This document shows, in pieces, positions 12,155-37,272 of a stretch of DNA of 64,000 bases. The translations under genes were made by a program, and so were the position numbers. The stretch spans positions 9,852 to 73,851 of the forward strand of contig CAZNOH010000001.1 of the NCBI GenBank assembly GCA_964574655.1, read 5' to 3'. The notes below the pieces were generated by a model. That model was not told where the DNA came from and did no database searches. It saw only the letters and a program-made list of their open reading frames with translations. Origin of the DNA: an uncultured Candidatus Saccharibacteria bacterium. Its GTDB lineage: Bacteria > Patescibacteriota > JABMPQ01 > JAQVVF01. How positions within the stretch are numbered: position 1 is the first letter of the stretch; each line of letters begins with the position of its first letter.

Positions 12155-12931
12155 TTAGGAAAGAGCAACGAAACCTTGGGTTATTTTTTCTGGCGGTAGT
12201 TCCAGAAGTGTGCTAGCTAAATTTGATTGATTGCAGTTTAGTGAATTTTTAAAACTATCAAGCCAATGGGTTGCAAATCGAGAGGTTTTTATAAAGTGAT
12301 AGGCAATTAGATCGCAGAGAAATTCGATATCTTCGTGAGTCAAAGCAAAAGAATTATTTTCGTGCAACCAAGCATGGAAAAGTTCGTGGACAAAAATAGC
12401 AATAAATTGTTCTTTAGGCAGGCCGAAAAGGATAAAGATTTTGTGGCAGGAAATTGTTTTTTTCCCATTGGGGAAAACTTGAAATTGAGTTTGGCATTGG
12501 CCTAGAACTGTTTTGCTAATAACGCCATTGTGTTTTCTTAATTTTAATAATGTATTTAGATCAACTATTTCATAAGAGAGCGGTTTTCTGACGACTATTT
12601 TCCATTGAGATAAGATTTTGAAAACAAAGTTAATAATTGATTGATCTAAAATATAAATGGCATTGGAAAAACAGTTTGAACAGACAAGGCGATGATCTGA
12701 TAATGGGAATGTAGTTTTTTCATCTAGCTGTTTGGTGCAAGAAAAACAGCAGAGATTTGGTTTATAACAGGTTTCGCAGACATTGCCCCAATCTGTTTTG
12801 AGAAAAGATGTGGTGACTGGTTGATGGCAAACAATGCATTTTGGCGCTTGATGGTTTCGACAAAAAATACAAAATTTTCTATCTTCAATTCGATAGATTG
12901 TGTTTACTTCCATACCGCAGTCGCAACGCAT
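12155..12931 (-). CDS. DA1-like zinc metallopeptidase with three N-terminal LIM-like/zinc-ribbon CxxC pairs
   Basis: N-terminus has repeated CxxC...CxxC pairs (CDCG...CIFC, CIVC...CETC, CFSC...CSNC). C-terminus has HELFHAWLHE...E, closely resembling the DA1-like peptidase HEMMHAW motif. Confidence 0.5.
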   Translation of the reverse strand: MRCDCGMEVNTIYRIEDRKFCIFCRNHQAPKCIVCHQPVTTSFLKTDWGNVCETCYKPNLCCFSCTKQLDEKTTFPLSDHRLVCSNCFSNAIYILDQSIINFVFKILSQWKIVVRKPLSYEIVDLNTLLKLRKHNGVISKTVLGQCQTQFQVFPNGKKTISCHKIFILFGLPKEQFIAIFVHELFHAWLHENNSFALTHEDIEFLCDLIAYHFIKTSRFATHWLDSFKNSLNCNQSNLASTLLELPPEKITQGFVALS

Positions 12932-13061: not shown

Positions 13062-14888
13062 TTAGATTATTTTGTCAATAATGCTTATTTTAAGATCGTC
13101 TAGATTTATTTTTAAATAAAATTTAATTAGAGTTCCGTTGGTTTTTAGATCTAGGTCTTTTTTAGTATATTTTTTAACAAGTTTTTTTAAAGGGCCGATG
13201 ATTTTTCCTTGCATATCATTTCTATTGGTGCTGTAAGAAGAGCGGGGCAATTTATTGCTGGTAATACTGGATTGTTGATTTTCCAATAATATTTTTAATA
13301 TTTCAATGGCTGTTTTTTGGGAAGGAAGTTGTTTGGAAGTCAGAGTTTTGCCTTTGATAAAAATTTTATGATTGATATTATCTAGGAGTAAATCAATTTC
13401 TTCTTTCTTAATTTTTTCTTCCAGCAGTAATTGAATTGATGTTTCAGAGGATGTAAAAGTTTTTTGAATAAGGGTATCTTTTTGGACATATTTTGAATAA
13501 ATTCCTTGCAACCAAGATTGTTCAATTTTTAATCCTTGTTCTTGAGAAGAATTATCCAGCCAAGAGGCAAAATCTAGATTAATATCTGGATTAAATTTGC
13601 TTTTTAATTCTGCAACAATCTGATCAATTTTGTTTCTCAATTGATAGGAATTAGCAACAAACAAAATATCGCCTCGGCGAACGGTGCCGGAGATCTTAGC
13701 AGCAGCTAAAATGTCTTCTTGGCCAGATTTTTTAGCTAGCAATCTAAAAGACGAAATTAAACGATCGCAATTTGGCGAGGAAAGATTAAGGAGGTTGAAG
13801 AGATACTGCTCTTTATTTAATAGTTCGACAAGATTTTTTAGCAAATCGGAAGAGAATCCTTGGCTAAAGATTTTTTTGAAAGCAATATAAGATTGAAAAG
13901 AATTGATGGGCAAGCAATCAGTATATTTATTCCAAAGCTCATTATTTTCTTGGTAAATTTTTCCGATCAGAGTTTTTGATTTGCCTAAATATTTTTTTAG
14001 ATCGATGAAGCAGTTTTGAGAATCCTTAATCAGTTTAGTTTTAAATTCTTTAATTTGAGCTTGTGAATCATGGACATCTCTGTTTTCTCCCGTATAAATT
14101 AGGCCATAGTCAAAAGGCCAAGACCAGCTGGTTAGATGATTGGTTATTTCATCTAATTTAATGATTTGATAAAAGCTGGAATCGATAGAATCAAGCTCTT
14201 CTAATCTAGGCTGATTTTGAGCTGGATTAGATTTGGTTTTTTTGCTGAAAAATAGAACAGGAACAGAAGATGGCAAAATGCTAGTAAGATTGCTGCCGCT
14301 AGCATTTGGAAAAAGAAAGCTTTCCCATTTCCAAATGGTTTTGAAAAGAAAATCAAATTTTAAATCTTTATTTTCTTTTAACTCAAGGCAATTTTTATTT
14401 TTCCAGCTAATAACGTCTTGTTGGTCTAATTTTTGGTTAAGAATCAAAGCACTAGTTAACAAGGCAACTAAAATAGCGCCACTGCCTAAGCCTCTTTCTA
14501 AAGGCAGTTCATTAAGAATATGAATATTAAAACCAATAGGCTTTTTAATTTGGCAAACATCTGTTAAAAATTTAAGGAAATATTTTTCAGTTTTTTCTGT
14601 TAAATACGGATCAAAATCATCCTTGTGGAAGGTTTGTGAATTAGGATCAAAATAAGCATAGCTGGTGATTCTAATGTTTTGTTTTTTATTGGGAATTAGG
14701 CCGACATAAGTTTTGAGAGGCAGATTTTGACGCAAAGTTAATCCGTCGTATTTGACAGCTTGCTCGCCAAACCAAGTGAAAGATCGCGGGGAAGAACAAA
14801 CTAAAGGGCATTGTGAAAAGAAATCTCGGTAGATTTTAGGGAATGTCTTTTGTAAAGACAATGAATTCATTGTAATGCGATTAGCCAT
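13062..14888 (-). CDS. GHMP-kinase family protein, unusually long (608 aa)
   Basis: GHMP motif I-like SPRSFTWFGEQAVKYDG (compare APGKVILFGEHAVVYG) and motif II PLERGLGSGAILVALL (PxGSGLGSSAA-like). The C-terminal ~350 aa match nothing recognisable. Confidence 0.55.
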   Translation of the reverse strand: MANRITMNSLSLQKTFPKIYRDFFSQCPLVCSSPRSFTWFGEQAVKYDGLTLRQNLPLKTYVGLIPNKKQNIRITSYAYFDPNSQTFHKDDFDPYLTEKTEKYFLKFLTDVCQIKKPIGFNIHILNELPLERGLGSGAILVALLTSALILNQKLDQQDVISWKNKNCLELKENKDLKFDFLFKTIWKWESFLFPNASGSNLTSILPSSVPVLFFSKKTKSNPAQNQPRLEELDSIDSSFYQIIKLDEITNHLTSWSWPFDYGLIYTGENRDVHDSQAQIKEFKTKLIKDSQNCFIDLKKYLGKSKTLIGKIYQENNELWNKYTDCLPINSFQSYIAFKKIFSQGFSSDLLKNLVELLNKEQYLFNLLNLSSPNCDRLISSFRLLAKKSGQEDILAAAKISGTVRRGDILFVANSYQLRNKIDQIVAELKSKFNPDINLDFASWLDNSSQEQGLKIEQSWLQGIYSKYVQKDTLIQKTFTSSETSIQLLLEEKIKKEEIDLLLDNINHKIFIKGKTLTSKQLPSQKTAIEILKILLENQQSSITSNKLPRSSYSTNRNDMQGKIIGPLKKLVKKYTKKDLDLKTNGTLIKFYLKINLDDLKISIIDKII

Positions 14889-14949: not shown

Positions 14950-14978
14950 TTGACAATATTGTTTTTCTTAATTATAGT
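14950..14978 (+). promoter_or_regulatory. Putative promoter TTGACA-N17-TATAGT for the P-loop kinase-like gene
   Basis: Consensus -35, 17-nt spacer, then a leader containing GATTGTTCTTTGACAAAG and the SD. Confidence 0.5.
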
Positions 14979-15030
14979 AAAAAGAAATATTGATTGTTCT
15001 TTGACAAAGACAAAGAAAGGAGGGAAGGCA

Positions 15031-16080: not shown

Positions 16081-16105
16081 CTCCTCTTTTTGGGGAGTTT
16101 TTTAT
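16079..16105 (+). terminator. Terminator after the kinase-like gene
   Basis: AACTCCTCTTTTTGGGGAGTT followed by a T-run. It is near-identical to the terminator at 18470. Confidence 0.65.
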
Positions 16106-16185
16106 TGACAAAAAGTAATTATTTTATTATTATTGAGTAAGTTCTTTTATTGAGCGAGTTCTTTCAAAACTAGGAGGAGGAAGAA

Positions 16186-16986: not shown

Positions 16987-16993
16987 ATTTTAG

Positions 16994-17021
16994 TCCCAAT
17001 AAACAAGATTGGGATTTTTTC
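16994..17021 (+). terminator. Terminator after P1
   Basis: TCCCAAT-AAACAAG-ATTGGGA followed by TTTTTT. Confidence 0.7.
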
Positions 17022-17093
17022 TTAATTTTTTCTCTAGTAAAAAGTTTTAATAGTTAGATAATGGAGTTGTTCTTTGACAAAAAGGAGGAGAAA

Positions 17094-18452
17094 ATGAGCA
17101 AGTCTGTAGTACCGATTATTTTGCAGTCCATGAGACATGAGCAGGATTTATTTAAATGGAATCCAGAATTTGATTTGAATGTAGTTAATTTTGATCAGTT
17201 TAACAGGCCTTACATTAGGCAAAGAGGCAATGATGATCATGAGACTAGTTTTGTTCAAGTTTTGGATGACAGTGGAAAATTGGTAAAGTATGGTTTTGTG
17301 AAGGCAATTAAGGAAAGTTTTTCTGATTTTACAAAGACACTTTTAGGAGCTGGATCGCAGATGGCAAGGATTGTGTTTGATAAAGATAACCATGCTTATA
17401 CTTTAGTACGAATTGCTTGTGGCTTGGGAACGAAAGAAGTCCAGATAGGTTTGTTGCTTTATTCAAGAGATCAATGCAGAACTTGGCAAGTTTATAAGTT
17501 GCCGATTAATGGTGTGGCAACGATGGAATATTTTACCGGACATAATCAGATTAATGGACCGCCAATGATTGCTGTTTTTGAGAAAACAAAGGTGAAGGTG
17601 GCAAAATGGGCGACAATTCATAAATTATATGTTGTGGTGGTTAAAAAAACTAAGACAGGTCTTGAGTTTGAGCAGATAATAAAAGTGACAGAGAAATCTT
17701 TTGGTCTTTCAGCGCATTCTGGTGGGGCATCAGTCTTGGCTAGTTTAGATAGTAAAACGTATGTTATTTGGACAGAAGTAACTAATAACCCTAGTCATTT
17801 GGGATCGCCGACATTTGTAGCGACTTTTGATCATAGTTCCAAGAGATTAATCAATAAATCATTTGTTGGTTGTACATCAAAGCCGAAAAATGATATGCAC
17901 AATACTCCAGGGATTTGTTTGGATAGCCGAGGATTTTTAAATGTAATGCTTGGAGCGCACGCTGGTAGTTTTTTTTATGGCAGGAGCCAGATTTCTAACT
18001 CAGTAGAAAGAGGATGGACTTTGTTGCATGAAACATATTCGTCTGTCGGTCAAACTTATATTGCTTTGGTTTGTGATCAGGTAGATAATTTACATCTTGT
18101 TTTTCGGGATCATAGATATGGCAAAAGAGATTTTCACGCTAGCCATTTTCATTATTGCGCGCTTTGTTATCAAAGAATGTTAAAAGACGGATATTGGGAA
18201 GTTTCAAGACTATTGGTTGTGCCGCCATTGCCAGATTACAGCATCTATTATCATCAGTTGTCGATTGATCGATTAGGAAGATTGTTTTTATCTTACAATT
18301 ACTATAGCGAAAGTGAACCATACAAGAGTTGGATTGAGAAAAATGGCAGATATAATAAGAAATTTCGCGCTATGCTTTTTAGTGGAGATGGCGGTATGAC
18401 TTGGCAAATGGCGACAACGAGAATTTTTTTGGATGGATTTGTGAAGACTTGA
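17094..18452 (+). CDS. Hypothetical protein with two BNR/Asp-box-like motifs (possible beta-propeller)
   Basis: SRDQCRTW and SGDGGMTW match SxDxGxTW. SD AAAGGAGGAG and leader motif TTGTTCTTTGACAAA. The upstream in-frame Met at 17061 is in the leader. Confidence 0.4.
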   Translation: MSKSVVPIILQSMRHEQDLFKWNPEFDLNVVNFDQFNRPYIRQRGNDDHETSFVQVLDDSGKLVKYGFVKAIKESFSDFTKTLLGAGSQMARIVFDKDNHAYTLVRIACGLGTKEVQIGLLLYSRDQCRTWQVYKLPINGVATMEYFTGHNQINGPPMIAVFEKTKVKVAKWATIHKLYVVVVKKTKTGLEFEQIIKVTEKSFGLSAHSGGASVLASLDSKTYVIWTEVTNNPSHLGSPTFVATFDHSSKRLINKSFVGCTSKPKNDMHNTPGICLDSRGFLNVMLGAHAGSFFYGRSQISNSVERGWTLLHETYSSVGQTYIALVCDQVDNLHLVFRDHRYGKRDFHASHFHYCALCYQRMLKDGYWEVSRLLVVPPLPDYSIYYHQLSIDRLGRLFLSYNYYSESEPYKSWIEKNGRYNKKFRAMLFSGDGGMTWQMATTRIFLDGFVKT

Positions 18453-18469
18453 ACTTTGTTAGCTAGGTT

Positions 18470-18497
18470 AACTCTTCTTTTGGGGAGTTTTTTTATT
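18470..18497 (+). terminator. Terminator after the 17094 gene
   Basis: AACTCTTCTTTTGGGGAGTT followed by a T-run; a duplicate of the 16079 terminator. Confidence 0.65.
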
Positions 18498-18627
18498 TTT
18501 CCTAGTTTTTTCAATTTTTTTCTTTTTGATAAGAGATAATAATGAAAGTGGAAAGTAAAAGATAGGACTTTACAACTAGGACATGATCCGCTTTCGCTAA
18601 AGCTACGGCGGACAAAGGAGAACAGCC

Positions 18628-19653
18628 ATGAAGAATATCGGATCAAAATTGTTTGTGCTACTGGGGATGCTTTTGATCGTTATTGGAGCAATTTCGCTTT
18701 TGGTAGCAATTCTTTACGGCAAGTATTTTGCTTTTTTGGCCTTGTATCCTGATTTGGTAGATATGGTGGCGGATTTTGGAGTTAATATTTATCTGTCAAG
18801 AATTGTAGCAGTCTTTGTAACGATTGGATTGTGGGTAGCGATTTTCAAATTCTTGTTGAGCTTCAGCCAGAAAAAGAGAGAAATTGGTTTTTTCATTTTG
18901 TTAGGATTGTTTGTTCTGCATACCTTTTGTTTGTATATTATTAATTTGAATCGGTCTGTTTCTGTTGATGGGCAGGTGGGATTTTGCACGCGAGACCAAA
19001 TTACTGGACGAGTGGAATATTTCGATCGGTCTTTGTATGATGCTTCTGGCCAGAAAGCGGAAAAATGCACAAAAGATGAAATTCGGCAGCTCCGTGTTCA
19101 GGATAAATATCCCAATAATGAGATTCCTTTGATAGCGATTGGCAACTGGTTTGATGAGAATGGTAGTTCGTTGGTTTATTACTATAAAGATAGTCAAGGC
19201 GTACTTCATTTTCGTTATATGGGAGGTTTTGCTCAAACAGGAGAGATGTGGCAACAGGTAACAAAGGAAGTGCTTGGAAAAATCAGTCCAAATTTGCAGT
19301 CGCAGTTTCAGCAAACGAAAGGTGATGTTGTATTGAGGCATAATTTTGATGATCGACCGAATTTAAAGACTCTGTATAGAAATTCTTTGGCGGGATATCT
19401 GATTTTCTTTGTCTTTCTGAATATTGTTTTTTGGGTGGTGTTTTTGAAGATAGCAAGTCTTTCTTTTGGTACGAGGGCTAGTTTAATAGGTTTGGCTGGT
19501 TTGGTTAATCTGGTTGGTTTTTGCGGTATTGATTATGCATCAAGTTGGTCAGGATTGGCAGTTGCGGTTTTAATGATCAGCTTGGCATCGCCGTTTGTAA
19601 TTTCTTTCGTCAAAGGTTTCTGGACAGGAATGAGAGAGAGCAGGCCCGTCTAA
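18628..19653 (+). CDS. Membrane protein, unknown function
   Basis: N- and C-terminal TM clusters flank a ~170 aa hydrophilic domain. SD AAAGGAGAACAGCC precedes the ATG. Confidence 0.55.
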   Translation: MKNIGSKLFVLLGMLLIVIGAISLLVAILYGKYFAFLALYPDLVDMVADFGVNIYLSRIVAVFVTIGLWVAIFKFLLSFSQKKREIGFFILLGLFVLHTFCLYIINLNRSVSVDGQVGFCTRDQITGRVEYFDRSLYDASGQKAEKCTKDEIRQLRVQDKYPNNEIPLIAIGNWFDENGSSLVYYYKDSQGVLHFRYMGGFAQTGEMWQQVTKEVLGKISPNLQSQFQQTKGDVVLRHNFDDRPNLKTLYRNSLAGYLIFFVFLNIVFWVVFLKIASLSFGTRASLIGLAGLVNLVGFCGIDYASSWSGLAVAVLMISLASPFVISFVKGFWTGMRESRPV

Positions 19654-19696
19654 TTAAGGGCGGGAGGTCAACCAACTGGAAGAGGAGGAGACGGTC

Positions 19697-19927
19697 ATGA
19701 CAGGATACACAATCGCAATGTTGATTACTGGCGGGATTTTGCTGATTGTCGGTGTTTTGATTGTAACAGGCGTTTGGAATCCATTTTCTAAGAAGGATGC
19801 AGATGGCAAGAAGGAGCCGTTGTCCCGAAAGGAAAAAGGGATGGTGGCAGGCTTCTTTGCAATGCTGATTCTGGCAATCGTGAATTTCTTCTACGCCATT
19901 TTTCCGATGCAGAAGCGAAAGTCCTAA
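19697..19927 (+). CDS. Small 2-TM protein (paralog of 28448..28696)
   Basis: 76 aa with two hydrophobic helices, shares the W-x-PF...K-x-PL-x-KEK pattern with the 28448 ORF, SD GAGGAGGAG, followed by terminator hairpin CCCGA/TCGGG. Confidence 0.55.
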   Translation: MTGYTIAMLITGGILLIVGVLIVTGVWNPFSKKDADGKKEPLSRKEKGMVAGFFAMLILAIVNFFYAIFPMQKRKS

Positions 19928-19945
19928 AATATCATTCGTTCATTC

Positions 19946-19969
19946 ATCCCGATTTATTCGGGATTTTTA
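19946..19969 (+). terminator. Terminator after the small 2-TM gene
   Basis: CCCGA-TTTAT-TCGGG followed by ATTTTTAT. Confidence 0.55.
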
Positions 19970-20047
19970 TTTAATTGACAATAAGATTCTTTTATACTAT
20001 GTTGGAGAGAATGTTCTTTTCAAAATAGAAGAAAGGAGGAAAAAAGG

Positions 20048-20794
20048 ATGTCTAAGGGAGAGAAATTTAAAGTAATTGATCCATCGGGGGAATTGAAGGA
20101 ATGGTCATTTAAAGAAAAGCCAAAAAGTGCTGAACCAATGGTTTGTGAGGAAAAGAGAATAGAAACAAAGCCAAGTGTATTTTTCGAACTTGGAAAAATG
20201 TTTGGAAAAAAAATGAAGTTCTTGAAGTTATACGGAGTATGGATTATTTTTTGCATTTTGGGTATTCTCGCTGTTTTTTTTATTTGGGTATTGGCAATTT
20301 TTGTGCATGGAAGCGATTTTCTTTCTCAGACCATTCCAATACAGTCTAGGTCGCAACAGAAGCAAAGTATTGTCACACAAAATACCAAAGTGGTACAAAG
20401 ATCATGGCCACTGGGAAGCAAAGCAGAAGTATTGGTAGAAGATGTGGAGTGGAATTATTCAAGAAATGAGTTTTACTGTAATTTACATGAGATTAAGGGA
20501 TGGAGTGTTGTTTTTGATCGGGTAGAGACGCGGATCTGGAAATTACAGAAAAGTGATGAATCACCACAAGTTTTTAAACAAAGAGAGCCTCATTATTGGA
20601 CCCGAAACGTGCATCTTAATATTAGGCCTTTTCAACGTTATTGTGGAAAAGATAGACGGTCAGATCGTTGCGTGATAACTTTGGAAAACTATCGAGCATG
20701 GCTACAAGAAATAGAATGGATTGAGGTGAAACTTTTAGGTAAAGATGCACGAGGAAATGAAGTGAGTGTGGTTTTAGAGACTTATGATCATTGA
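20048..20794 (+). CDS. Paralog-family protein P2 (N-module + 1 TM + C-terminal domain shared with P6)
   Basis: MSKGEKFKVIDPSGELKEWSF, one TM. The C-terminal ~115 aa are alignable with the C-terminus of P6 (RIWKLQ..ESPQ.FKQR.P..WTR.VH...LENYRAWLQ..EWIE.KL.GKD.RGNE). Confidence 0.6.
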   Translation: MSKGEKFKVIDPSGELKEWSFKEKPKSAEPMVCEEKRIETKPSVFFELGKMFGKKMKFLKLYGVWIIFCILGILAVFFIWVLAIFVHGSDFLSQTIPIQSRSQQKQSIVTQNTKVVQRSWPLGSKAEVLVEDVEWNYSRNEFYCNLHEIKGWSVVFDRVETRIWKLQKSDESPQVFKQREPHYWTRNVHLNIRPFQRYCGKDRRSDRCVITLENYRAWLQEIEWIEVKLLGKDARGNEVSVVLETYDH

Positions 20795-20952
20795 TATTTA
20801 TACAGTTTTTTGAAGCTGTATTTTTTTTCTTAACTTTTTCAATTTTCTTTTTAAAGATTTGTTCTAATATTAGGTTAGATGATAGTTGACTAATTTTATT
20901 GTTCATGCTATCCTACAGTGATTGTTCTTTGACAAATCAAGGAGGAAGGAAA
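20795..20952 (+). repeat. Array cassette copy A (terminator + CTTAACTTTTTCAATTTTC box + promoter + GTTCTTTGACAAA leader + SD)
   Basis: About 85-95% identical to cassettes B-E over ~130 nt, by direct reading. Confidence 0.8.
20886..20914 (+). promoter_or_regulatory. Cassette promoter (TTGACT-N17-TATCCT) of P3
   Basis: Part of the duplicated cassette; same geometry in all five array copies. Confidence 0.45.
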
Positions 20953-21558
20953 ATGCCAGAAGAAAAGAAAACTTTTCAAGTGATTGCGCCGGATGGAGAG
21001 CTGAAAGAATGGGAAATTGAGAATTCAAAAGAAATAGGATTGGTGGAAAACAAGTTTAAAGAGAGACGAGCGATTTCAGTGAATGTTTTTTTTAGATGTG
21101 GAAGATGGGCAGGAAAAATAATATTGGGTTGGTTTTCTTTTTTCGTTTCAAAATTAGAACTTTTATTAAAACAAAAAGCCGAAAAGAAATTATTGAAAGT
21201 AAAAGAGAAAGTTGAAAGGGAAGAGAGTAAACGGTTAAAAATAAAGAGAATACATGAAGAAAGAATGCATGAAGAAGCAAAGAGAAAAGAATTAATTTTG
21301 CAGAGTATTGATGTTTTGGACAATGCGGGATATCACGAAAAAGCTGCAAGGATTGCTAAGGAGACAGGAAGTTATGAGAGAGCTATTGATATTTTAGATC
21401 GTACTGGACACCATGAAAAAGCTGCAGAGATTGCTGAGGAGGTAGGAAATTATGGGAAAGCTATTGATATTTTGGTACGATCGGGACATCACGGAAAAGC
21501 AGGGAGAATTGGTGAAAGACTTGCTAGAAGATCTAATAATTCTGTAAAAAAAGTTTAA
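20953..21558 (+). CDS. Paralog-family protein P3 (N-module + tandem 19-aa helical repeats)
   Basis: MPEEKKTFQVIAPDGELKEWEI, then three tandem repeats of G[YH]HEKAA.IA.E.G.Y..AIDIL.R.GHH. The start is at the ATG after AAGGAGGAAGGAAA. Confidence 0.6.
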   Translation: MPEEKKTFQVIAPDGELKEWEIENSKEIGLVENKFKERRAISVNVFFRCGRWAGKIILGWFSFFVSKLELLLKQKAEKKLLKVKEKVEREESKRLKIKRIHEERMHEEAKRKELILQSIDVLDNAGYHEKAARIAKETGSYERAIDILDRTGHHEKAAEIAEEVGNYGKAIDILVRSGHHGKAGRIGERLARRSNNSVKKV

Positions 21559-21746
21559 GATTTAAATAAAGATACTATTTTATTAATTTGTACCTTTTCG
21601 GAGTTTTCTCCGATTTTTTTTATTAACTTTTTCAATTCTCTTTTTAATAATTTGTATTAAAATTAGATTAGATGGATAGTTGACCAATCTTATTGTTCAT
21701 GCTATTCTTCAGTGATTGTTCTTTGACAAATCAAGGAGGAAGGAAA
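21559..21746 (+). repeat. Array cassette copy B
   Basis: Hairpin TCGGAG/CTCCGA, the TTAACTTTTTCAATTCTC box, promoter, leader and SD. Confidence 0.8.
21680..21708 (+). promoter_or_regulatory. Cassette promoter (TTGACC-N17-TATTCT) of P4
   Basis: Duplicated cassette copy. Confidence 0.45.
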
Positions 21747-22838
21747 ATGGCAGAAGAAAAGAAAACTTTTCAAGTGATTACGCCGGATGGGGAATTGAAA
21801 GATTGGGAATTAGATGCGCCTAAACTAAAAAAGGCGGATGATAAGCTTAATAAAAAAAATCAGAGTTTGAGATTGGCTTTTGAATGGATGAAGAAAGCAG
21901 GAATGGCAACAGGAAAACATTATAGATTAATCCTGATTGTTGCGAGCTGTGTTTATTTGGCGGTATGGATTTGGCAAGAAAGATCTTTTCGTCTTGAAGA
22001 ACTTCATCGTCAAGAAGTAGTAGCTATGCAGTTACAGCAAAAAGAGAAAGCTAGAATGAGAGTAGGAGAAGAAAAAAAGGAAGAGAAGATTGCAACCACA
22101 AAGGCACAAAAAACTGACGAAAAAACACAAGAGGTTGAAGAAAAAGTTGAAGTTGCAGAACCTGAAAAAGAAAAAGAATGCTATGGTAAAGGGAACAAAT
22201 TGGTGAATGGGGTATGCGTACTAGAACATGTTATAAGAATGCATGAACAGTACGAGCACGAATTACAAAAAGAAAGACAAGCAGACAAAGAGAGACAACG
22301 TGGAGATGAGTTACGCAGGAAAGAAGTGTTTCACAGACAAGAGGAAGCTTGGTTGGTAGAAGAAGCAATGCGAAAGTTAGAAGTGGAGCGGAAAGAGGAG
22401 CACGAAGCTATTTTGGGACAACGACATGAGTATTTGAAAGAGCAACGAAGATTAGAAAGAGAGAGCAATCCTCATGTATATAGATCAAAATATCCAGTAG
22501 TTTTAAAGCCAGATTTATTAATAAAAGGAGCCTCTTCTAGCGTGATAGACGTTCCGGATGACTTTATAATCAGAGAAGTCATTATTGAACTAGATGTGAA
22601 GGTGGATAAACAGTATCTTCCATCTCAAAGTCATTTTGATTGTAATCTCTTGAGATCAGGCAAATTAATTAGTTTAAAAGGTTGTTGTATAGGTGGATGT
22701 GTTTTTAGCGAATTTATTCGTGAATCGTCAAGAGGGGAATGGAAAATATTGAAGAAAAAAATGCCAGGACGATTTCTTAGGTGGAAGATAACAATTGTCC
22801 CGGCAATTGCAGAAGATGGAACAGTGTTAAAACCTTAG
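21747..22838 (+). CDS. Paralog-family protein P4 (N-module + TM + charged coiled-coil + P-domain-like C-terminus)
   Basis: First ~90 aa identical to P5. E/K/R/Q-rich middle section. C-terminal ~95 aa alignable with P5 (VIDVPDDF.IR...CNL.RSGK...GEWKI...ITI.PA.AEDGTVLKP). Confidence 0.6.
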   Translation: MAEEKKTFQVITPDGELKDWELDAPKLKKADDKLNKKNQSLRLAFEWMKKAGMATGKHYRLILIVASCVYLAVWIWQERSFRLEELHRQEVVAMQLQQKEKARMRVGEEKKEEKIATTKAQKTDEKTQEVEEKVEVAEPEKEKECYGKGNKLVNGVCVLEHVIRMHEQYEHELQKERQADKERQRGDELRRKEVFHRQEEAWLVEEAMRKLEVERKEEHEAILGQRHEYLKEQRRLERESNPHVYRSKYPVVLKPDLLIKGASSSVIDVPDDFIIREVIIELDVKVDKQYLPSQSHFDCNLLRSGKLISLKGCCIGGCVFSEFIRESSRGEWKILKKKMPGRFLRWKITIVPAIAEDGTVLKP

Positions 22839-23002
22839 ATCTTTTTTGTTAAAACGCGCATTATTGACGCGTTTTTTTCTTAACTTTTTCAATTTTGTTT
22901 TTGAAGATTTGTTCTAACATTAGGTTAGATGATAGTTGACCAATCTTATTGTTCATGCTATTCTTCAGTGATTGTTCTTTGACAAATCAAGGAGGAAGGA
23001 AA
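22839..23002 (+). repeat. Array cassette copy C
   Basis: Hairpin AACGCG/CGCGTT; the remainder is near-identical to copy B and continues into the identical first ~270 nt of P4/P5. Confidence 0.8.
22936..22964 (+). promoter_or_regulatory. Cassette promoter (TTGACC-N17-TATTCT) of P5
   Basis: Duplicated cassette copy, identical to the P4 copy. Confidence 0.45.
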
Positions 23003-23959
23003 ATGGCAGAAGAAAAGAAAACTTTTCAAGTGATTACGCCGGATGGGGAATTGAAAGATTGGGAATTAGATGCGCCTAAACTAAAAAAGGCGGATGATAA
23101 GCTTAATAAAAAAAATCAGAGTTTGAGATTGGCTTTTGAATGGATGAAGAAAGCAGGAATGGCAACAGGAAAACATTATAGATTAATCCTGATTGTTGCG
23201 AGCTGTGTTTATTTGGCGGTATGGATTTGGCAAGAAAGATCTTTTCGTCTTGAAGAACTTCATCGTCAGCAGGTAGTAGCTAAGCAGTTACTGCAGGTGG
23301 AAGAAGGAAAAAGAGAGAGAATAAGAATACGAACAGATGAAGAAAGAAAACGTCGTGATGAAGTAGAGAGACAACAGTTGGAACGGCAAAGGTTGGAAGA
23401 ACAGCTGTGGGTAGAAGAGGAGCATAGCAGGCAGGCAAAATTACGTCAGACGAAAGATGATAGGAGACGTCGTGATGAAGAGGAAAGACGGCTGATAATG
23501 TTGCGTCGACAAGAGGAAATCAGATTGGCACGAGAGGCAAAGCAAAGAGAGAGGGAAGAACGTGAACCGCATACATATAAAACGAGTCAGCCAATGGTAT
23601 TAAAAGCAGGCGCATCACAAGAAGCTTATTTTAAATTTGCAGAGAGTGTAATTGATGTTCCAGATGATTTTTATATTAGAGGGATTAGGATTTGGTTAAA
23701 GTTGGATGTTAAGAGCTTTTATAGAGATGAATTTTTAAAACCTCGTTATGACGGTTTAGAATGTAATCTCGTGAGATCTGGCAAGGTAACTTTTTTAAGA
23801 GATTGTTGTCTTGATGGATGTCTTTTTGATGAATTTAATAGTGAATCGTCAAAAGGAGAATGGAAGATAAAGGTAAGAGCAGTAGAAGGATGGATTAATT
23901 CGTGGCAGATAACAATTACGCCAGCAGTTGCAGAAGATGGGACAGTATTAAAACCATAG
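23003..23959 (+). CDS. Paralog-family protein P5 (mosaic paralog of P4)
   Basis: Identical to P4 over the promoter, leader and first ~90 codons, diverges into an R/E-rich coiled-coil, then rejoins P4 in the C-terminal beta-domain. Confidence 0.6.
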   Translation: MAEEKKTFQVITPDGELKDWELDAPKLKKADDKLNKKNQSLRLAFEWMKKAGMATGKHYRLILIVASCVYLAVWIWQERSFRLEELHRQQVVAKQLLQVEEGKRERIRIRTDEERKRRDEVERQQLERQRLEEQLWVEEEHSRQAKLRQTKDDRRRRDEEERRLIMLRRQEEIRLAREAKQREREEREPHTYKTSQPMVLKAGASQEAYFKFAESVIDVPDDFYIRGIRIWLKLDVKSFYRDEFLKPRYDGLECNLVRSGKVTFLRDCCLDGCLFDEFNSESSKGEWKIKVRAVEGWINSWQITITPAVAEDGTVLKP

Positions 23960-24125
23960 ATTGTTTTTTGTTAAAACGCGCATGTGTCGCGTTTTTTTTT
24001 TAACTTTTTCAGTTTTCTTTTTAATAATTTGCATTAAAATCAGATTAGACGGATAGTTGACCAATTTTATTGTTCATGCTATCCTGTAGTGATTGTTCTT
24101 TAAACAAAGAAAAGAGGAGGGAAGT
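23960..24125 (+). repeat. Array cassette copy D
   Basis: Same terminator type as copy C, box TTAACTTTTTCAGTTTTC. The leader variant ends GTTCTTTAAACAAAGAAAAGAGGAGGG. Confidence 0.75.
24057..24085 (+). promoter_or_regulatory. Cassette promoter (TTGACC-N17-TATCCT) of P6
   Basis: Duplicated cassette copy. Confidence 0.45.
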
Positions 24126-25271
24126 ATGCCTACAGAAAAGATATTTAGGGTGATTACGCCGGCAGGAGAGAGAAAAGAGTGGGTGATAAAAAATGAAGCT
24201 TGCGAAGTTCAACCTAAATGTTTAGTGCAAGAACAAAAGAAAGATAGATTTGATGGATTTTTAGATGGAGTGAGCAAGAAATTGGGTGAAGCGGGAAAGG
24301 AATTAGCTAAAATAACAGTTTCTTTTATTTCATGGTTGAGAACGAATATTAGAGTGATCTTGCTTGCTATGTTAGTCTTAGCGGCTTGTATAGCGCTATG
24401 GCGCTTAGTAGTTTTTGTAGGCATTCTATACGAGGCATTTGTTGATTGGTTGACGAAAAATAAATCTTCAGATGGAGCATGGTGGATGACTTATTTTCTT
24501 GGCATTGGCATATGGTTGATGATTGCTGTTGTTTATTTTCTGTTGATCTATGTCAAAAGAGAACACAGAATTTGGGGAGTTCGTTATTATGATTTTGCTG
24601 ACTTTTTTTGGTTCTTGGCATTAGGAGTATTTTTAGCATTTGTTGGCGGGTTAATTTCAGCGCAGGTCGCTTCTTGGCTTGCTTCGATTGTACCTTGGTA
24701 CTTGTCAATAATTATTCCATTAGCGGTTTCTTTGTTAGGAATTGGATTGATTAAAAACGGAATTTATCAATGCAATTTTGATGAAAAAGTTTGGTGGATA
24801 GTTATTCTAGCTGTGATATTGTTAGTCTCTGGAGTTAAAGCAGGCTGTGAATTAAGAAAAAAATGGCAGACTGAAAGAGAAGAATCTTTACGACAGCAAG
24901 CAGTTGAGCGTTTGAAATGCAAGGCAAGAATTTTGGTAGAACATTCAAGTTGGGGTTGGTCAAATAATGAATTTCATTTTAGTTTACAGGACATGGGAAA
25001 TTGTGGAGTTGTTTTGAATAAAGCGGAAGTCAGGATTTGGAAATTGCAAGAAGATAATGAATCTCCGCAATCTTTTAAGCAACGCCAGCCGTTTTTTTGG
25101 ACAAGAGATGTTCATTTTGAGGCTGACTCATTTCAATGCATGGAGGGTAGTATAAAATTGGAAAATTATCGGGCTTGGTTGCAAGATAAAGAATGGATTG
25201 AAATTAAACTATTTGGTAAAGATGAGCGTGGAAATGAGTTAATTGTACTTTTGGAAGCATATGATGAATAA
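24126..25271 (+). CDS. Paralog-family protein P6 (N-module + polytopic membrane region + C-terminal domain shared with P2)
   Basis: MPTEKIFRVITPAGERKEWVI, about six hydrophobic helices, C-terminal domain homologous to the P2 C-terminus. Confidence 0.6.
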   Translation: MPTEKIFRVITPAGERKEWVIKNEACEVQPKCLVQEQKKDRFDGFLDGVSKKLGEAGKELAKITVSFISWLRTNIRVILLAMLVLAACIALWRLVVFVGILYEAFVDWLTKNKSSDGAWWMTYFLGIGIWLMIAVVYFLLIYVKREHRIWGVRYYDFADFFWFLALGVFLAFVGGLISAQVASWLASIVPWYLSIIIPLAVSLLGIGLIKNGIYQCNFDEKVWWIVILAVILLVSGVKAGCELRKKWQTEREESLRQQAVERLKCKARILVEHSSWGWSNNEFHFSLQDMGNCGVVLNKAEVRIWKLQEDNESPQSFKQRQPFFWTRDVHFEADSFQCMEGSIKLENYRAWLQDKEWIEIKLFGKDERGNELIVLLEAYDE

Positions 25272-25465
25272 TATTATTACAGCTCTTTAAAGCTGTATTT
25301 TTTTCTTAACTTTTTCAATTTTCTTTTTTATAATTCGTATTAAAATCAGATTAGATGAATAGTTGATCAATTTTATTGTTCATGCTATTCTATAGTGATT
25401 GTTCTTTGACAAATCAATCCGCCTTCATCTCTGCGGAGACTACGGTGGACAGGGGAGGAAGGAAA
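25272..25465 (+). repeat. Array cassette copy E (with a ~40-nt GC-rich leader insertion)
   Basis: Hairpin ACAGCT/AGCTGT, box, promoter TTGATC-N17-TATTCT. The leader GTTCTTTGACAAATCAA is interrupted by TCCGCCTTCATCTCTGCGGAGACTACGGTGGACAGG before GGGAGGAAGGAAA. Confidence 0.75.
25363..25391 (+). promoter_or_regulatory. Cassette promoter (TTGATC-N17-TATTCT) of P7
   Basis: Duplicated cassette copy. Confidence 0.4.
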
Positions 25466-26269
25466 ATGGCAGAAGAAAAGAGGACTTTCAAGGTTGTTGC
25501 GCCGGATGGAGAGTTGAAGGAATGGGAGTTTGGAGCTTCGGAGGCAAAGAAAAGTATCTCTTTAGAATCATGTCAGTCAACTAAAACAGATGAGATTATC
25601 AAACATTCTTCAAATCAGATTCGAGCAGAAGCGTATATAGTTGTTTTTAAGATCGGTAAATGGTTGGGAAATGTGATTAAACATTTTGTTTTGCAACTTA
25701 GGATATTTTGGCAAAAAATGACAGCTAAGAAATATTCTACTTATGATGATTTTCAGAAAGGCAAGTGTCTTATGGTAGTAGAGGAAGACTTGATTATTAG
25801 TGAAAAGGAACTTAGATATGAACAATCATATGGAAGATCGTATTTGAAATTAATTATGGTAATTTCATGTCTAAGGGAAATAAATGTTGTTTTCACAAAA
25901 GGCAAAGTTGTAGGCGAGAGTGAATATGGTCTTGCAGAATTTGATATTACTGGTTGTATTAGGAATTTGGAAATTTTTGTTTTTGTAGACAGAAAAGAAA
26001 TAGTTATCGATTTGAGTTGTTTAATCAGTCTGATTGAAAAATGTGAAGTGTTAAATATAGAACTTTTGGGGAGCGAAACAGATTTGTTTTCAGGGCAAAA
26101 AAGATTGAGAAAAATTCGTTTTGAATTTGCTAAATTAGGAGGTAAATTAGTTAAATATCATTGTACTTTTTGTGATTCTAGTGCTTTCTCTTCTGATTTG
26201 CTTTTTTATTCCCAATTTATTTGGGATTTTTTATTTTTCTTAATTTTTTCAGTATTTTTCTTATTATAA
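25466..26269 (+). CDS. Paralog-family protein P7 (N-module + distinct body + C-terminal hydrophobic tail)
   Basis: MAEEKRTFKVVAPDGELKEWEF. Its leader carries a ~40-nt GC-rich insertion relative to the other cassettes. The C-terminus FLFFLIFSVFFLL is hydrophobic. Confidence 0.55.
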   Translation: MAEEKRTFKVVAPDGELKEWEFGASEAKKSISLESCQSTKTDEIIKHSSNQIRAEAYIVVFKIGKWLGNVIKHFVLQLRIFWQKMTAKKYSTYDDFQKGKCLMVVEEDLIISEKELRYEQSYGRSYLKLIMVISCLREINVVFTKGKVVGESEYGLAEFDITGCIRNLEIFVFVDRKEIVIDLSCLISLIEKCEVLNIELLGSETDLFSGQKRLRKIRFEFAKLGGKLVKYHCTFCDSSAFSSDLLFYSQFIWDFLFFLIFSVFFLL

Positions 26270-26325
26270 AAAAGCAAAAATGAAGCTAGCAGATAGTTCT
26301 TTCACAACAGGCAAAGGAGGACAAA

Positions 26326-27285
26326 ATGTGGGCGAAAATCGGGTTTTTTTTGCTGGCAGTCTTGGCAATTTATATCGGCATTGCGCTTTTAGTAAAGTTT
26401 TTTCCGCAGATTTTTCGGCAAAAAAATCTTGATACTCTGCGGAGGGCAAGCGGAAATATGTTTGTTCCTCAAGGCGCTTTTGGAAGAACTCTTGGATTAA
26501 CATTGGGAATTCCGGTGGCGATAATGGGAGTAACAGCAGTAGTAGAATTTGAACAAAAAAGATTGCTAGGTTTGAAAATTAGAGAACTGGAAAATAAGAT
26601 AGTTGCTAAATTAAGCAAAGGAATTATTTATTTTATTTCGCTTAGAGTTTTTTTGGATGAGAAGTTGAGTTTGTGGAAAAGACAGATTGCAATTGGTGAA
26701 TTTGAGCATCTTAGTTTGTTGGGCGAGGTTGATGATTTGGCGAGAAAATTAAAAGATTTTTGGCCAGTGATTTCAGAAATCGAAGTTTTGCTGGCAGATA
26801 ATTTTCAATTGTTAGAAAAAGTGAAGCAAATGCAGTTGCCTTCGGAAATTAATGGCGAGGTTGGGAAATTGGAGCAGGCTTTGAGGGAATACCAGAAAAT
26901 AACGATAGATTTTGACAGTTTGGCGCCTTTTGTTTCTTTGGGCGATGATTTGAAACAGATCAATACTTTATTAAAGCAAATTATGATGATGGATTCTGAA
27001 TTGCAGAATAAGATTGAGCCTAAAAAAGATTATTATATCATTTTAGGACTTAAAAAAAATGCTTCACAAGAAGAGATAAAGAAAGCTTATCGAGCTTTGG
27101 CGATAAAATTTCATCCTGATAAAAAAAGATCCCAATTGGAAAAAATTGACGATGAGGATATGAAAGCCAGAATTGAAGAAGAATATAATCGGATGCTGGC
27201 GGATATTAATGAAGCTTATGGAATTTTATTAGATGTCCAAAAGAGAGAAGAATATGACCGAACTTTTTCGTCAAGTACTTTTTAG
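26326..27285 (+). CDS. DjlA-like membrane-anchored J-domain co-chaperone
   Basis: Two N-terminal TM helices, a coiled-coil middle, and a C-terminal J domain with HPD (DYYIILGLKKNASQEEIKKAYRALAIKFHPDKK). Confidence 0.7.
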   Translation: MWAKIGFFLLAVLAIYIGIALLVKFFPQIFRQKNLDTLRRASGNMFVPQGAFGRTLGLTLGIPVAIMGVTAVVEFEQKRLLGLKIRELENKIVAKLSKGIIYFISLRVFLDEKLSLWKRQIAIGEFEHLSLLGEVDDLARKLKDFWPVISEIEVLLADNFQLLEKVKQMQLPSEINGEVGKLEQALREYQKITIDFDSLAPFVSLGDDLKQINTLLKQIMMMDSELQNKIEPKKDYYIILGLKKNASQEEIKKAYRALAIKFHPDKKRSQLEKIDDEDMKARIEEEYNRMLADINEAYGILLDVQKREEYDRTFSSSTF

Positions 27286-27364
27286 TATTTGACATTTTTC
27301 TTTTGTTTTGTTTGAACAAGATAAAAGAAAGATAGTTAGCTCTTTAAAAAAAGGAGGGAGAGAC

Positions 27365-28192
27365 ATGGCAAACATAGTCAAGAGGCCAGAATCAGTAACA
27401 GCGCTTTTGACTGATATTCGGAAATTTACAGGCGGTCAATTTTCATCAGTTAGAAAAGAAGATCAGCAGGCAAGTTTTGGCAAAAAACTGCAAGTTGTTT
27501 TTCTGTTTGATACAACTGGAAGCATGTATCCGTATTATGAGCTTGGCAAGAAGCAAATTAGCCAGATAGTTTCGAAGGTCGTAGAAAAACATCGGCAGGC
27601 GCAGTTTTGCTATTTGGCTTATAAGAATCATGGCGATGAAACAGAATTTTTTGACGGCGAGAATCCTTTCTTTGCCTCTTCTTTTACCAGTGATCCAGAA
27701 CAAATCAAGTTGGAATTAGAGAAGGTGAAGAATGGAGGCGGAGGCGATGGTTTGACAGCTTTGGAATGCGTTTTTCATTATCTTAATGTAAATGTCAAAT
27801 GGCAAGATTCGGCAACAAAAATTGTGGTTTTAATTGGCGATATGCCGCCTCATGGAGTGATTGATTCGGTAGCAAAATGTCCAAAAAAGCATAATTATCA
27901 AGATGAGATTGCGCAAATGAAGGCGAAAGGGATAAAGGTTTATTCAGTATTCTGTTTTGAAGAGGGTAATTTGGTTTCATCTCGGATAAAGCAGGTTAAA
28001 ATGTTTTTTAGGGAAACAGCTTCAAGAACTAATGGGCGCTATCTGGAATTGGCAGAGATTGGAGAAATTGTTGATTTGTTGACAGGAATTTGCATGAAGG
28101 AAATTGGTCATTTGGATGAATTTGTCAAGGATTTGGAAAGATTGCAGCAGCTTTCCGATGGGAAGAGAAGACTGTTGCTGGCACTGAAGTAA
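27365..28192 (+). CDS. von Willebrand factor type A (vWA) domain protein
   Basis: MIDAS-like VVFLFDTTGSM with an alpha/beta alternation typical of vWA. Start is the ATG after AAAAAGGAGGGAGAGAC. Confidence 0.6.
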   Translation: MANIVKRPESVTALLTDIRKFTGGQFSSVRKEDQQASFGKKLQVVFLFDTTGSMYPYYELGKKQISQIVSKVVEKHRQAQFCYLAYKNHGDETEFFDGENPFFASSFTSDPEQIKLELEKVKNGGGGDGLTALECVFHYLNVNVKWQDSATKIVVLIGDMPPHGVIDSVAKCPKKHNYQDEIAQMKAKGIKVYSVFCFEEGNLVSSRIKQVKMFFRETASRTNGRYLELAEIGEIVDLLTGICMKEIGHLDEFVKDLERLQQLSDGKRRLLLALK

Positions 28193-28202
28193 GGAGGAAG
28201 CC

Positions 28203-28457
28203 ATGGTAGAAGAACGGAATGAAACAGTTGCAAAAGGAATTAATTTTTTGTTGGATATGGCTGCAAATATGGGCAAGATGGCAGTGAACAATGTTTTTGA
28301 AGTGGAGACAGCGGATGATAGGACAAAAGAAGTGAGCAAAGCGGAGATCAAGAAAAGTTTCAGAAAGCAATTGATAAAAATGGTCTTGGATTTTTTCGGT
28401 GACGAGGAGGATGAGCAGAAACCCGAAGACAAACAAGGAGGCGAGCCATGTGGTTGA
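28203..28457 (+). CDS. Small acidic hypothetical protein
   Basis: 84 aa, SD TAAGGAGGAAGCC, overlaps the next ORF by 10 nt (coupling). Confidence 0.45.
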   Translation: MVEERNETVAKGINFLLDMAANMGKMAVNNVFEVETADDRTKEVSKAEIKKSFRKQLIKMVLDFFGDEEDEQKPEDKQGGEPCG

Positions 28458-28696
28458 CAATTCTTTTGATTGTTTTGTCGGCAATTGCGATGTTGGTTGG
28501 TTCGGCTTTGATTTTGGATTTTTGGACGCCTTTCAAAAATGAACATGGCGAAAAAACGCCGCTGTTGCCAAAAGAAAAAAGTGCAGTCGGAGTGATTGTG
28601 CTAGGAATAGTTGTTTCATTGTTATCATTGATCTTTGTTGCTAATCCGCCTTGGCTTAGTCAGCTTCGCGAGAAGATGAAGTCTAACAAGGCGTGA
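28448..28696 (+). CDS. Small 2-TM protein (paralog of 19697..19927)
   Basis: 82 aa, two hydrophobic helices, shared W.PF...K.PL..KEK pattern, SD AGGAGGCGAGCC, followed by terminator CCCGAA/TTCGGG. Confidence 0.55.
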   Translation: MWLTILLIVLSAIAMLVGSALILDFWTPFKNEHGEKTPLLPKEKSAVGVIVLGIVVSLLSLIFVANPPWLSQLREKMKSNKA

Positions 28697-28710
28697 ACTT
28701 TTGTACTTTA

Positions 28711-28735
28711 CCCGAAAATAACTTCGGGTTTTTTA
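28711..28735 (+). terminator. Terminator after the second small 2-TM gene
   Basis: CCCGAA-AATAAC-TTCGGG followed by TTTTTTA. Confidence 0.65.
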
Positions 28736-28865
28736 TTTAATCGACAAGTTGTTATTAAAAACGTATAATTTAGATAATAAAAATATAAAATTTATATTAA
28801 ATTAAAATAAAAATATTTGTTCTTTGAAAAAAAGGAGGGCGTAAAAATGGCGTGGTTGAAGAAAA

Positions 28866-37188: not shown

Positions 37189-37272
37189 TGCCCTGAGAGA
37201 GATTTGAACTCTCACGCCCTTGCGGGCACTAGCTCCTGAAGCTAGCCTGTATGCCAGTTCCAGCACCAGGGC
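37189..37272 (-). tRNA. tRNA-Leu (anticodon CAG), long variable arm
   Basis: The reverse complement folds as a cloverleaf: acceptor GCCCTGG/TCAGGGC, anticodon loop TTCAGGA (CAG, G37), variable arm TGCCCGCAAGGGCG, T-arm GAGAG-TTCAAAT-CTCTC. No encoded CCA. Confidence 0.85.

Follow-up and report, generated by a model that had tools for sequence, protein, structure and literature searches.

The stretch analysed here (the window) comprises 64,000 nucleotides of contig CAZNOH010000001.1 from an uncultured Candidatus Saccharibacteria bacterium. The element in question is a cluster of four genes, g1 to g4, at positions 26326-28696, encoding a J-domain protein (g1), a von Willebrand factor A (vWA) protein (g2), a small acidic protein (g3) and a small protein with two transmembrane (TM) segments (g4). 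The window has a GC content of about 33% and a strongly positive GC skew, and its proteins find their nearest homologues in metagenome-assembled genomes (MAGs) of Patescibacteria (the Candidate Phyla Radiation, CPR), namely Falkowbacteria, Uhrbacteria, Magasanikbacteria and entries labelled only 'Patescibacteria group'. All four open reading frames (ORFs) lie on the + strand, with intergenic gaps of 79 nt (g1-g2) and 10 nt (g2-g3) and an overlap of exactly 10 nt between g3 and g4. The co-oriented, tightly spaced arrangement and the gene contents reported in a first-pass annotation, made from the DNA sequence by itself, are thus correct. Terminator-like hairpins delimit the cluster on both sides (Table 1), and a weak hairpin between g1 and g2 may be an attenuator or an mRNA-processing site.

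Table 1. Positions of the g1-g4 genes, their expression signals and related island genes in the window.
Feature	Position	Strand	Remarks
g1, J-domain protein, 319 aa	26326..27285	+	ATG preceded by AAAGGAGG
g2, cytoplasmic vWA protein, 275 aa	27365..28192	+	ATG preceded by AAAGGAGGG
g3, small acidic helical protein, 84 aa	28203..28457	+	isoelectric point 4.7; acidic C-terminal tail FFGDEEDEQ...
g4, small 2-TM protein, 82 aa	28448..28696	+	two TM-like segments by hydropathy
Terminator-like hairpin	26210..26226	+	closes upstream paralog-array gene; 5' boundary of the g1-g4 unit
Degenerate leader copy GTTCTTTCACAAC	26296..26308	+	2 mismatches; 18 nt upstream of g1 ATG, just before the Shine-Dalgarno sequence
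Weak AT-rich hairpin	27270..27293	+	spans g1 stop codon
g2 leader	27322..27358	+	degenerate motif and Shine-Dalgarno sequence AAAGGAGGG; shares 76% identity with 28803-28839, the leader of the downstream gene
Intrinsic-terminator-like hairpin, then T-run	28710..28729	+	closes the g1-g4 unit
DA1-like LIM/HExxH metallopeptidase	12155..12931	-	Pfam PF12315, 34.6 bits; tblastn 33-36% identity; far end of island
608-aa protein	13062..14888	-	weak N-terminal GHMP-kinase match
a3, polytopic membrane protein of the array	18628..19653	+	in Patescibacteria, members of the family adjoin J-vWA pairs at 8 or more distinct loci

In g1, Pfam places a DnaJ domain (PF00226) at residues 235-311 with 64.1 bits against a cutoff of 27.8. 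The HPD motif is intact within KFHPDKK, and H263, P264 and D265 are conserved in all 12 J-bearing sequences of a 13-sequence alignment of the J proteins. The TM anchor is a strongly hydrophobic stretch of residues 5-23 (hydropathy peak 2.86), followed by basic residues; a second, weaker hydrophobic helix covers residues 55-73, and an all-helical cytoplasmic region extends over approximately residues 56-229. The aligned J proteins of Patescibacteria have the same layout (TM anchor, helical region of about 150 residues, linker and J domain with HPD), while g1 and its closest relatives share an insertion of about 14 residues behind the HPD. As the full-length query was drowned in generic DnaJ proteins, residues 1-228 were used alone and retrieved only 13 relatives among 1.84 billion representative proteins, all of 305-329 aa, which marks the non-J region as a narrow, fast-evolving family. 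The AlphaFold model obtained from these relatives is wholly helical (mean predicted local distance difference test score, pLDDT, 83.5). A Foldseek search of the model against the PDB returned J domains only (Tid1, T. thermophilus DnaJ and others) and matched nothing to the helical region. The g1 protein in the public NCBI record has 275 aa, its start being placed 44 codons downstream of the ATG backed by a Shine-Dalgarno sequence, so that the membrane anchor is lost.

The g2 protein scores 23.3-25.5 bits against the Pfam vWA models, slightly under the curated cutoffs (PF00092/PF25106/PF13519), and many of its homologues pass them. Its AlphaFold model (pLDDT 87.5, predicted template modelling score 0.82) has a clear vWA fold. 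At E up to 0.001, 270 PDB chains match this model, all of them vWA or I-domains, with integrin beta-I, TFIIH p44, vWF-A1 and BatB among the Foldseek matches; the structure prediction proposed beforehand in the first-pass annotation thus bears out the vWA assignment. A sequence-profile search of the PDB with the vWA alignment gave generic integrin and collagen vWA matches only. Invariant positions in the family alignment are D49-x-T51-x-S53, G126-G127-D128 (GGGD), E134 and D159-x-P-P-H-G-V (GDMPPHGV in g2). To judge from this alignment, the invariant Asp of GGGD may substitute for the canonical Thr of a metal ion-dependent adhesion site (MIDAS), the metal site being putative. Residues 1-40 form an N-terminal helix and a disordered linker, and the C-terminal extension consists of three helices with a near-invariant GICMKE motif. 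Hydropathy shows neither a signal peptide nor any hydrophobic or TM segment in g2, which is accordingly taken as cytoplasmic; this makes the adhesion role entertained in the first-pass annotation unlikely. An alternative start of g2 at TTG 27308 was replaced by ATG 27365, which follows the Shine-Dalgarno sequence AAAGGAGGG and yields an N-terminus (MANIVKRP) that aligns with the homologues.

In order to trace the pairing of the two genes, loci (given L numbers below) were gathered via two signature peptides of the vWA clade, DTTGSM and GD[MA]PPHGV, from GTDB species representatives, JGI metagenomes and IMG/VR, with up to 80 loci per scan; in GTDB, 80 of the 369 matches to both peptides were taken in. 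Six-frame ORFs of 209 loci were searched with purpose-built hidden Markov models (HMMs) of the J, Hsp70 and vWA domains, duplicates were then removed, and vWA proteins scoring at least 200 bits were assigned to the clade. The g2 protein carries both peptides, and g1 is its adjoining J gene. Among the first neighbourhoods, a DnaJ-domain gene was located directly upstream of the vWA gene in a Falkowbacteria contig, a Magasanikbacteria contig and L007, and a gene combining a J domain with tetratricopeptide repeats (J-TPR) directly downstream of it in a non-CPR contig. The 57 unique clade loci contain a directly adjoining J gene on the same strand either upstream (24 loci) or downstream (18), an Hsp70 fused to the vWA domain (four) or an adjacent Hsp70 gene (one); seven end at a contig boundary and three show no such link. 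A J or Hsp70 link is accordingly present in 47 of 50 evaluable loci, and a same-strand adjoining J gene in 42 of the 50. Among the 129 unique loci with a more distant vWA protein (below 200 bits), by comparison, one has a J gene nearby (orientation not recorded), two have a fused and none an adjacent Hsp70, and 126 have no link, a count in which contig ends are not separated.

The linked loci are found in Patescibacteria, several cyanobacterial genera, Sericytochromatia/Tanganyikabacteria, Phycisphaerales, Brocadiia and other planctomycetes, as well as in Verrucomicrobiota, a Chlorobiaceae MAG, Paludibacter (Bacteroidota), Chthonomonadales (Armatimonadota), Myxococcota and the archaeon Ca. Argoarchaeum. 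In many of them the J and vWA genes overlap or are about 11 nt apart. Every complete J partner of the upstream type has an N-terminal TM segment, including those of Chlorobiaceae, Brocadiia, Paludibacter and Argoarchaeum, and several of the downstream type have one to five TM-like segments at the C-terminus. Orthologues of the two genes thus adjoin each other in other genomes, one of the two points on which the first-pass annotation had made its proposal depend, and the J-vWA adjacency is strongly conserved and no local accident.

Four loci (L025, L029, L030 and L040) encode HSP70 (224-434 bits in Pfam) followed by vWA in a single polypeptide. The Hsp70 match stops near position 490 of the 599 profile positions, and the vWA domain consequently sits where the helical lid would be. 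Behind the fusion, at least L025 and L030 also contain GrpE and a second Hsp70. Fusion in some genomes combined with tight operonic adjacency in others is a classic sign of a physical or functional partnership. Read from sequence, the fusions point to Hsp70 itself as the ATPase partner of the vWA protein, and the partner MoxR AAA+ gene suggested in the first-pass annotation appears unneeded. No MoxR-type AAA+ gene linked to the vWA gene is present in the homologous loci examined or in the genomic island around g1-g4, where the only P-loop protein (14950-16080) matches AAA_28 weakly.

Relatives of the vWA protein also occur outside this setting. Forty distant ones were located on IMG/VR contigs of jumbo-phage or giant-virus size (L090-L129), many of 100-530 kb. 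These retain DTTGSM / PPHGV motifs and usually have about 100 additional aa at the C-terminus. As none of the 40 has a J domain or Hsp70, a phage origin of the J-vWA pair is unsupported. Searches of plasmids by tblastn gave distant, partial vWA matches only. A conserved system around the distant vWA clade was likewise discarded as a candidate, its neighbours being unrelated housekeeping genes (ligA, nadE, radical SAM, histidine kinase). The distant clade is also present in Asgard archaea (Thor-, Prometheo- and Hermodarchaeota) and in unclassified archaeal MAGs, where the loci (L033, L036, L037, L039, L045, L048, L051, L059, L067 and L076) have in common a few conserved neighbours without known function.

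In Patescibacteria the core pair is accompanied by a set of accessory genes. The g3 gene is conserved directly behind the vWA gene in these loci, and the g4 proteins have an invariant W-x-P-x-K ... KEK loop and a PW motif at the C-terminus; both are regarded as real genes because several divergent loci of Patescibacteria have homologues at the corresponding place. For the exact g4 protein the only record is a Logan assembly, with none in NCBI, and the gene may be unannotated in the deposited genome. Across all loci, searches with BLAST, jackhmmer and HMMs detected g3, g4, the DA1-like peptidase and the a3-like membrane family only in the J-vWA loci of Patescibacteria. The genes usually stand in the order J-vWA-g3-(DA1)-g4, and in several loci (L001, L016) at least one gene of the membrane family comes next; in L009 the cluster genes are present but rearranged. 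DA1 homologues, encoded in the window at the far end of the island, lie inside the cluster elsewhere, as g3-DA1-g4 in L007, L016 and L131 and as vWA-DA1-g4 in L136, which suggests that the zinc peptidase takes part in the Patescibacteria module. The 608-aa protein next to it shows 36% identity over 605 aa to the product of a gene directly upstream of the J-vWA pair in the Magasanikbacteria contig L005. In loci of Falkowbacteria, Magasanikbacteria, Uhrbacteria and further Patescibacteria, J-vWA pairs are flanked by homologues of a3 and also by homologues of the C-terminal domain shared by the array genes 20048-20794 and 24126-25271; a separate homologue search with 18628-19653 returned only itself, its word index being saturated by hydrophobic words. 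The loci L019, L034, L042 and L057 of filamentous cyanobacteria encode vWA and J-TPR proteins followed by a conserved protein of 151-159 aa and a VirD4/TraG-like coupling ATPase (PF02534); here the common core is extended in another, lineage-specific way.

The cluster belongs to a functional island from about 12155 to about 29618, bordered by ychF/efp at one end and by rpsF-ssb at the other. Six exact copies of a leader motif, GTTCTTTGACAAA, and no more, start at 14996, 17069, 20924, 21718, 22974 and 25401 (all within 14996-25413), and a copy with 1 mismatch at 28819, ahead of the gene after g4, extends the span of the motif in the window to 14996-28831. In most island genes the Shine-Dalgarno sequence follows the motif at a distance of 3-15 nt, which for the gene at 25466 grows to as much as about 45 nt; the flanking housekeeping genes rpsF and ssb have no copy upstream. 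The first-pass annotation had assigned this leader to g1 and g2 as well, and both do carry it, g1 with two mismatches and g2 in degenerate form. One shared 5' leader suggests, from its sequence and placement, that the island genes are co-regulated. In the style of a fourU thermometer, UUCUUU in the leader is able to pair with AAGGAG in the Shine-Dalgarno sequence. Seven leaders adopt this pairing as their main fold, with energies that do not improve on those of shuffles (z +0.07 to -1.2), and the lower value of the g2 leader (z = -3.0) is mostly owed to a separate upstream hairpin. An RNA switch is not claimed.

Other genes of the island with the leader are the P-loop NTPase-like gene at 14950-16080 and a BNR_4 beta-propeller-like gene at 17061-18452, neither of which has homologues in any related locus. 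Seven array proteins start with a cytoplasmic peptide, (K)TF-x-V-[IV]-x-P-x-G-E-x-K-x-W, mostly before the first TM segment (+ strand, at 16204, 20066, 20974, 21768, 23024, 24144 and 25487); outside the window it was encountered only in L009 (2421-3344). The regions 21675-21974 and 22931-23230, each comprising promoter, leader and first codons of neighbouring array genes, are 100% identical over 300 nt, and the 3' parts of the two genes have diverged to about 52% protein identity. The 300-nt identity suggests recent duplication or gene conversion. A 78-nt tandem duplication (21306-21461, 77% identity) within the array gene 20953-21558 encodes a repeated helical unit, 'GHHEKAA.IA.E.G.Y..AIDIL'. 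An Rfam scan of the whole window at gathering thresholds gave zero matches, although ARAGORN identified a tRNA-Leu(CAG) at 37189-37272 on the - strand.

It is somewhat probable, in our judgement, that g1-g4 constitute one transcription unit and that its J-vWA core is a conserved two-component module in which the vWA protein serves as an adaptor of Hsp70 (DnaK) at the membrane. The J protein would be tethered at the cytoplasmic face of the membrane through its N-terminal anchor, while the soluble vWA protein would use its putative metal site to hold a specific partner by an acidic residue. The J domain, with its intact HPD, would recruit DnaK and trigger ATP hydrolysis, and the partner held by the vWA protein would be captured and remodelled, that is assembled, disassembled or passed on to proteolysis. 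Coupling of vWA to Hsp70 would be in trans via the J domain or in cis by fusion, usually at the cytoplasmic membrane face, so that the vWA protein would serve Hsp70 as vWA co-chaperones serve MoxR AAA+ ATPases. The acidic tail of g3 is a candidate pseudo-ligand or regulator at the metal site, and g3, g4, the DA1-like zinc peptidase and the polytopic membrane family would form the extension of the module in Patescibacteria. Its clients are most likely the neighbouring membrane proteins of the island. In this respect the link to the adjacent membrane-protein array drawn in the first-pass annotation holds as far as homologues of array proteins flank J-vWA pairs, whereas folding or assembly of the array proteins by the module is what we infer. 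Its interpretation as a whole is partly supported.

Several points weigh against the adaptor module. The loci were selected by two clade peptides with a limit of 80 per scan, the 200-bit threshold was applied with an HMM itself built on clade members, and the neighbouring genes derive from crude ORF calls. A close relative, L003, has vWA-g3-g4 without a nearby J gene, and the J-family protein of L004 has no J domain. The middle Thr position of the MIDAS is variable in the family, the D128 of GGGD being invariant. The N-terminal motif of the array proteins (F-x-V-I-x-P-D-G-E-L-K-x-W) was rejected as a general MIDAS ligand, given its restriction to the window and L009. Contact between the J and vWA proteins is presumed from their genes, and no dnaK gene is present within the 64-kb window. 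A wider reading is more tentative. The vWA clade may represent an unrecognised class of client-specifying co-chaperones that aim Hsp70 at defined membrane targets, a counterpart of the MoxR-vWA systems that ranges from Patescibacteria to cyanobacteria and at least one archaeon. It would exist in three interchangeable forms: a TM-anchored J protein with vWA, vWA with J-TPR, and Hsp70 with vWA replacing its lid together with GrpE.

A role of the locus in conflict with phages or other invaders has a modest chance of being correct. Hsp70 and the J protein would then act as an NTP-dependent switch and the vWA protein as a sensor of invader peptides, with Hsp70 activity freeing or activating membrane effectors (g4, the polytopic proteins) and the paralog array reflecting an arms race. 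The partners around the Hsp70-vWA fusions match components of the GTPase-centred conflict systems of Kaur et al. 2020 (PMC7159879), which include HSP70, GrpE, a second HSP70 without peptide-binding domain and DnaJ- or TPR-fused components, and a protein with an FGE-sulfatase (FGS) domain, an effector type in those systems, adjoins the fusion in L029. Further in line with such a role, the accessory genes differ by lineage, the paralog array bears traces of recent duplication (the 100% identical 300-nt repeat) and the cyanobacterial VirD4/TraG-like ATPase weakly matches PADLOC mad8 (41 bits). This is, however, the sole match in PADLOC-DB 2.0: g1-g4 and the Hsp70-vWA fusions are unmatched, and NCBIfam, PHROGs and PADLOC gave no informative family beyond DnaJ. 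Nor is there a recognisable toxin or nuclease effector, and a GAP1-type GTPase, MoxR or VMAP component was not found. The position beside rpsF-ssb-rpsR, common to two divergent genomes (the window and L009), is more housekeeping-like than that of a mobile defence island.

The converse arrangement, in which the vWA protein is itself the regulated product, a sub-membrane scaffold assembled with g3 and g4 and controlled by Hsp70 via the J protein, is unlikely. The conserved N-terminal helix with its flexible linker and the C-terminal helical extension of g2 would suit protein-protein assembly, the J partner is almost universally membrane-anchored, vWA-g3-g4 is kept without J in L003, and the arrangement resembles the proposal that the vWA proteins of tellurite resistance (Ter) form sub-membrane structures (PMC7824862). 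A vWA domain fused C-terminal to the substrate-binding domain of Hsp70 nevertheless looks more like a client-binding extension than like a client, and TerB, TelA and TerD genes are all lacking in the neighbourhood. That g1 is an orthologue of DjlA in its usual role, as a membrane co-chaperone of DnaK in envelope-stress signalling with a merely adjoining vWA gene, is highly improbable and already contradicted by the family-model and domain tests. With DjlA, the membrane-anchored type III J-protein of proteobacteria, g1 has in common an N-terminal TM anchor, a cytoplasmic C-terminal J domain with HPD and, presumably, recruitment of DnaK to the membrane, and in this layout the label 'DjlA-like' of the first-pass annotation is apt. 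It does not extend to family membership. The NCBIfam equivalog model of DjlA (NF006948) gives 28.7 bits against a cutoff of 162 and aligns only at J-domain positions 194-233, and Pfam detects no TerB-like domain in g1 at E up to 0.1; in place of this middle domain, g1 has the novel helical bundle whose family counts just 13 representatives (about 305-329 aa). Hence g1 does not group with canonical DjlA. It is moreover partnered by a vWA gene, an adjacency kept across phyla, and DjlA is not known to be paired with one.

The specificity of Hsp70 is generally credited to J-domain proteins. If the adaptor module is real, a partner of MIDAS-type vWA, sometimes in place of the Hsp70 lid, adds another route of client selection and constitutes a conceptual bridge between the Hsp70 and MoxR-vWA chaperone systems. 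In Patescibacteria, such a module would service the fast-diversifying membrane and surface proteins on which these episymbionts depend, and the adjoining fast-evolving paralog array may mediate host contact. This offers a working hypothesis for a conserved cluster whose genes are hypothetical, in organisms with tiny genomes and mostly unannotated membrane proteomes, and the association is wide enough for testing in culturable cyanobacteria, planctomycetes and myxobacteria. Neither a J-vWA nor an Hsp70-vWA module was found described in the searchable full-text literature, which excludes most subscription journals and leaves an earlier mention possible; together with the PADLOC result, this agrees with the first-pass annotation, to which the combination was not known as a described system.

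Among known systems, the J-vWA module has something in common with the Bat/aerotolerance operons (MoxR, DUF58, BatA/BatB vWA, TPR), which also combine vWA, TPR and membrane components at the cytoplasmic membrane and of which BatB is among the structural matches of g2. The Bat vWA proteins are, however, membrane-anchored and paired with MoxR, whereas that of g2 is soluble and paired with a J domain or Hsp70. The TerY-P triad (vWA, PP2C phosphatase and Ser/Thr kinase) has no counterpart, as kinase and phosphatase domains were detected neither in the neighbouring genes of the window nor in those called in related loci. Escherichia coli HscC with DjlB/DjlC is a specialised Hsp70 with dedicated J partners. 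The GAP1-N2 GTPase systems (PMC7159879) likewise encode a dedicated J protein beside the system, sometimes membrane-anchored or TPR-fused, and the loci of the Hsp70-vWA fusions resemble them in combining Hsp70 and GrpE with another Hsp70 whose match is confined to the nucleotide-binding part of the profile. They are not described with the present vWA clade as a constant partner, and a GAP1 GTPase or FNIII-repeat component was absent among the neighbour genes of the minority of loci scanned with Pfam. The resemblance to the MoxR-vWA pairs (RavA-ViaA, CbbQ-CbbO, NorQ-NorD and the 'ternary' systems of PMC7159879) is one of organisation: the genes of an ATP-driven chaperone and of a vWA protein with a MIDAS are coupled, often by adjacency or fusion, the vWA protein is presumed to bind the target, and accessory or effector genes vary by lineage. 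The difference lies in the ATPase, here Hsp70 via a J domain or fusion, with no MoxR, VMAP or DUF58 gene, and in a vWA clade with a signature of its own (DTTGSM, GGGD, GD[MA]PPHGV and the C-terminal GICMKE helix). The J-vWA module thus appears to follow the scheme of an NTPase chaperone with a vWA co-chaperone in an apparently undescribed form, in which Hsp70 replaces MoxR.

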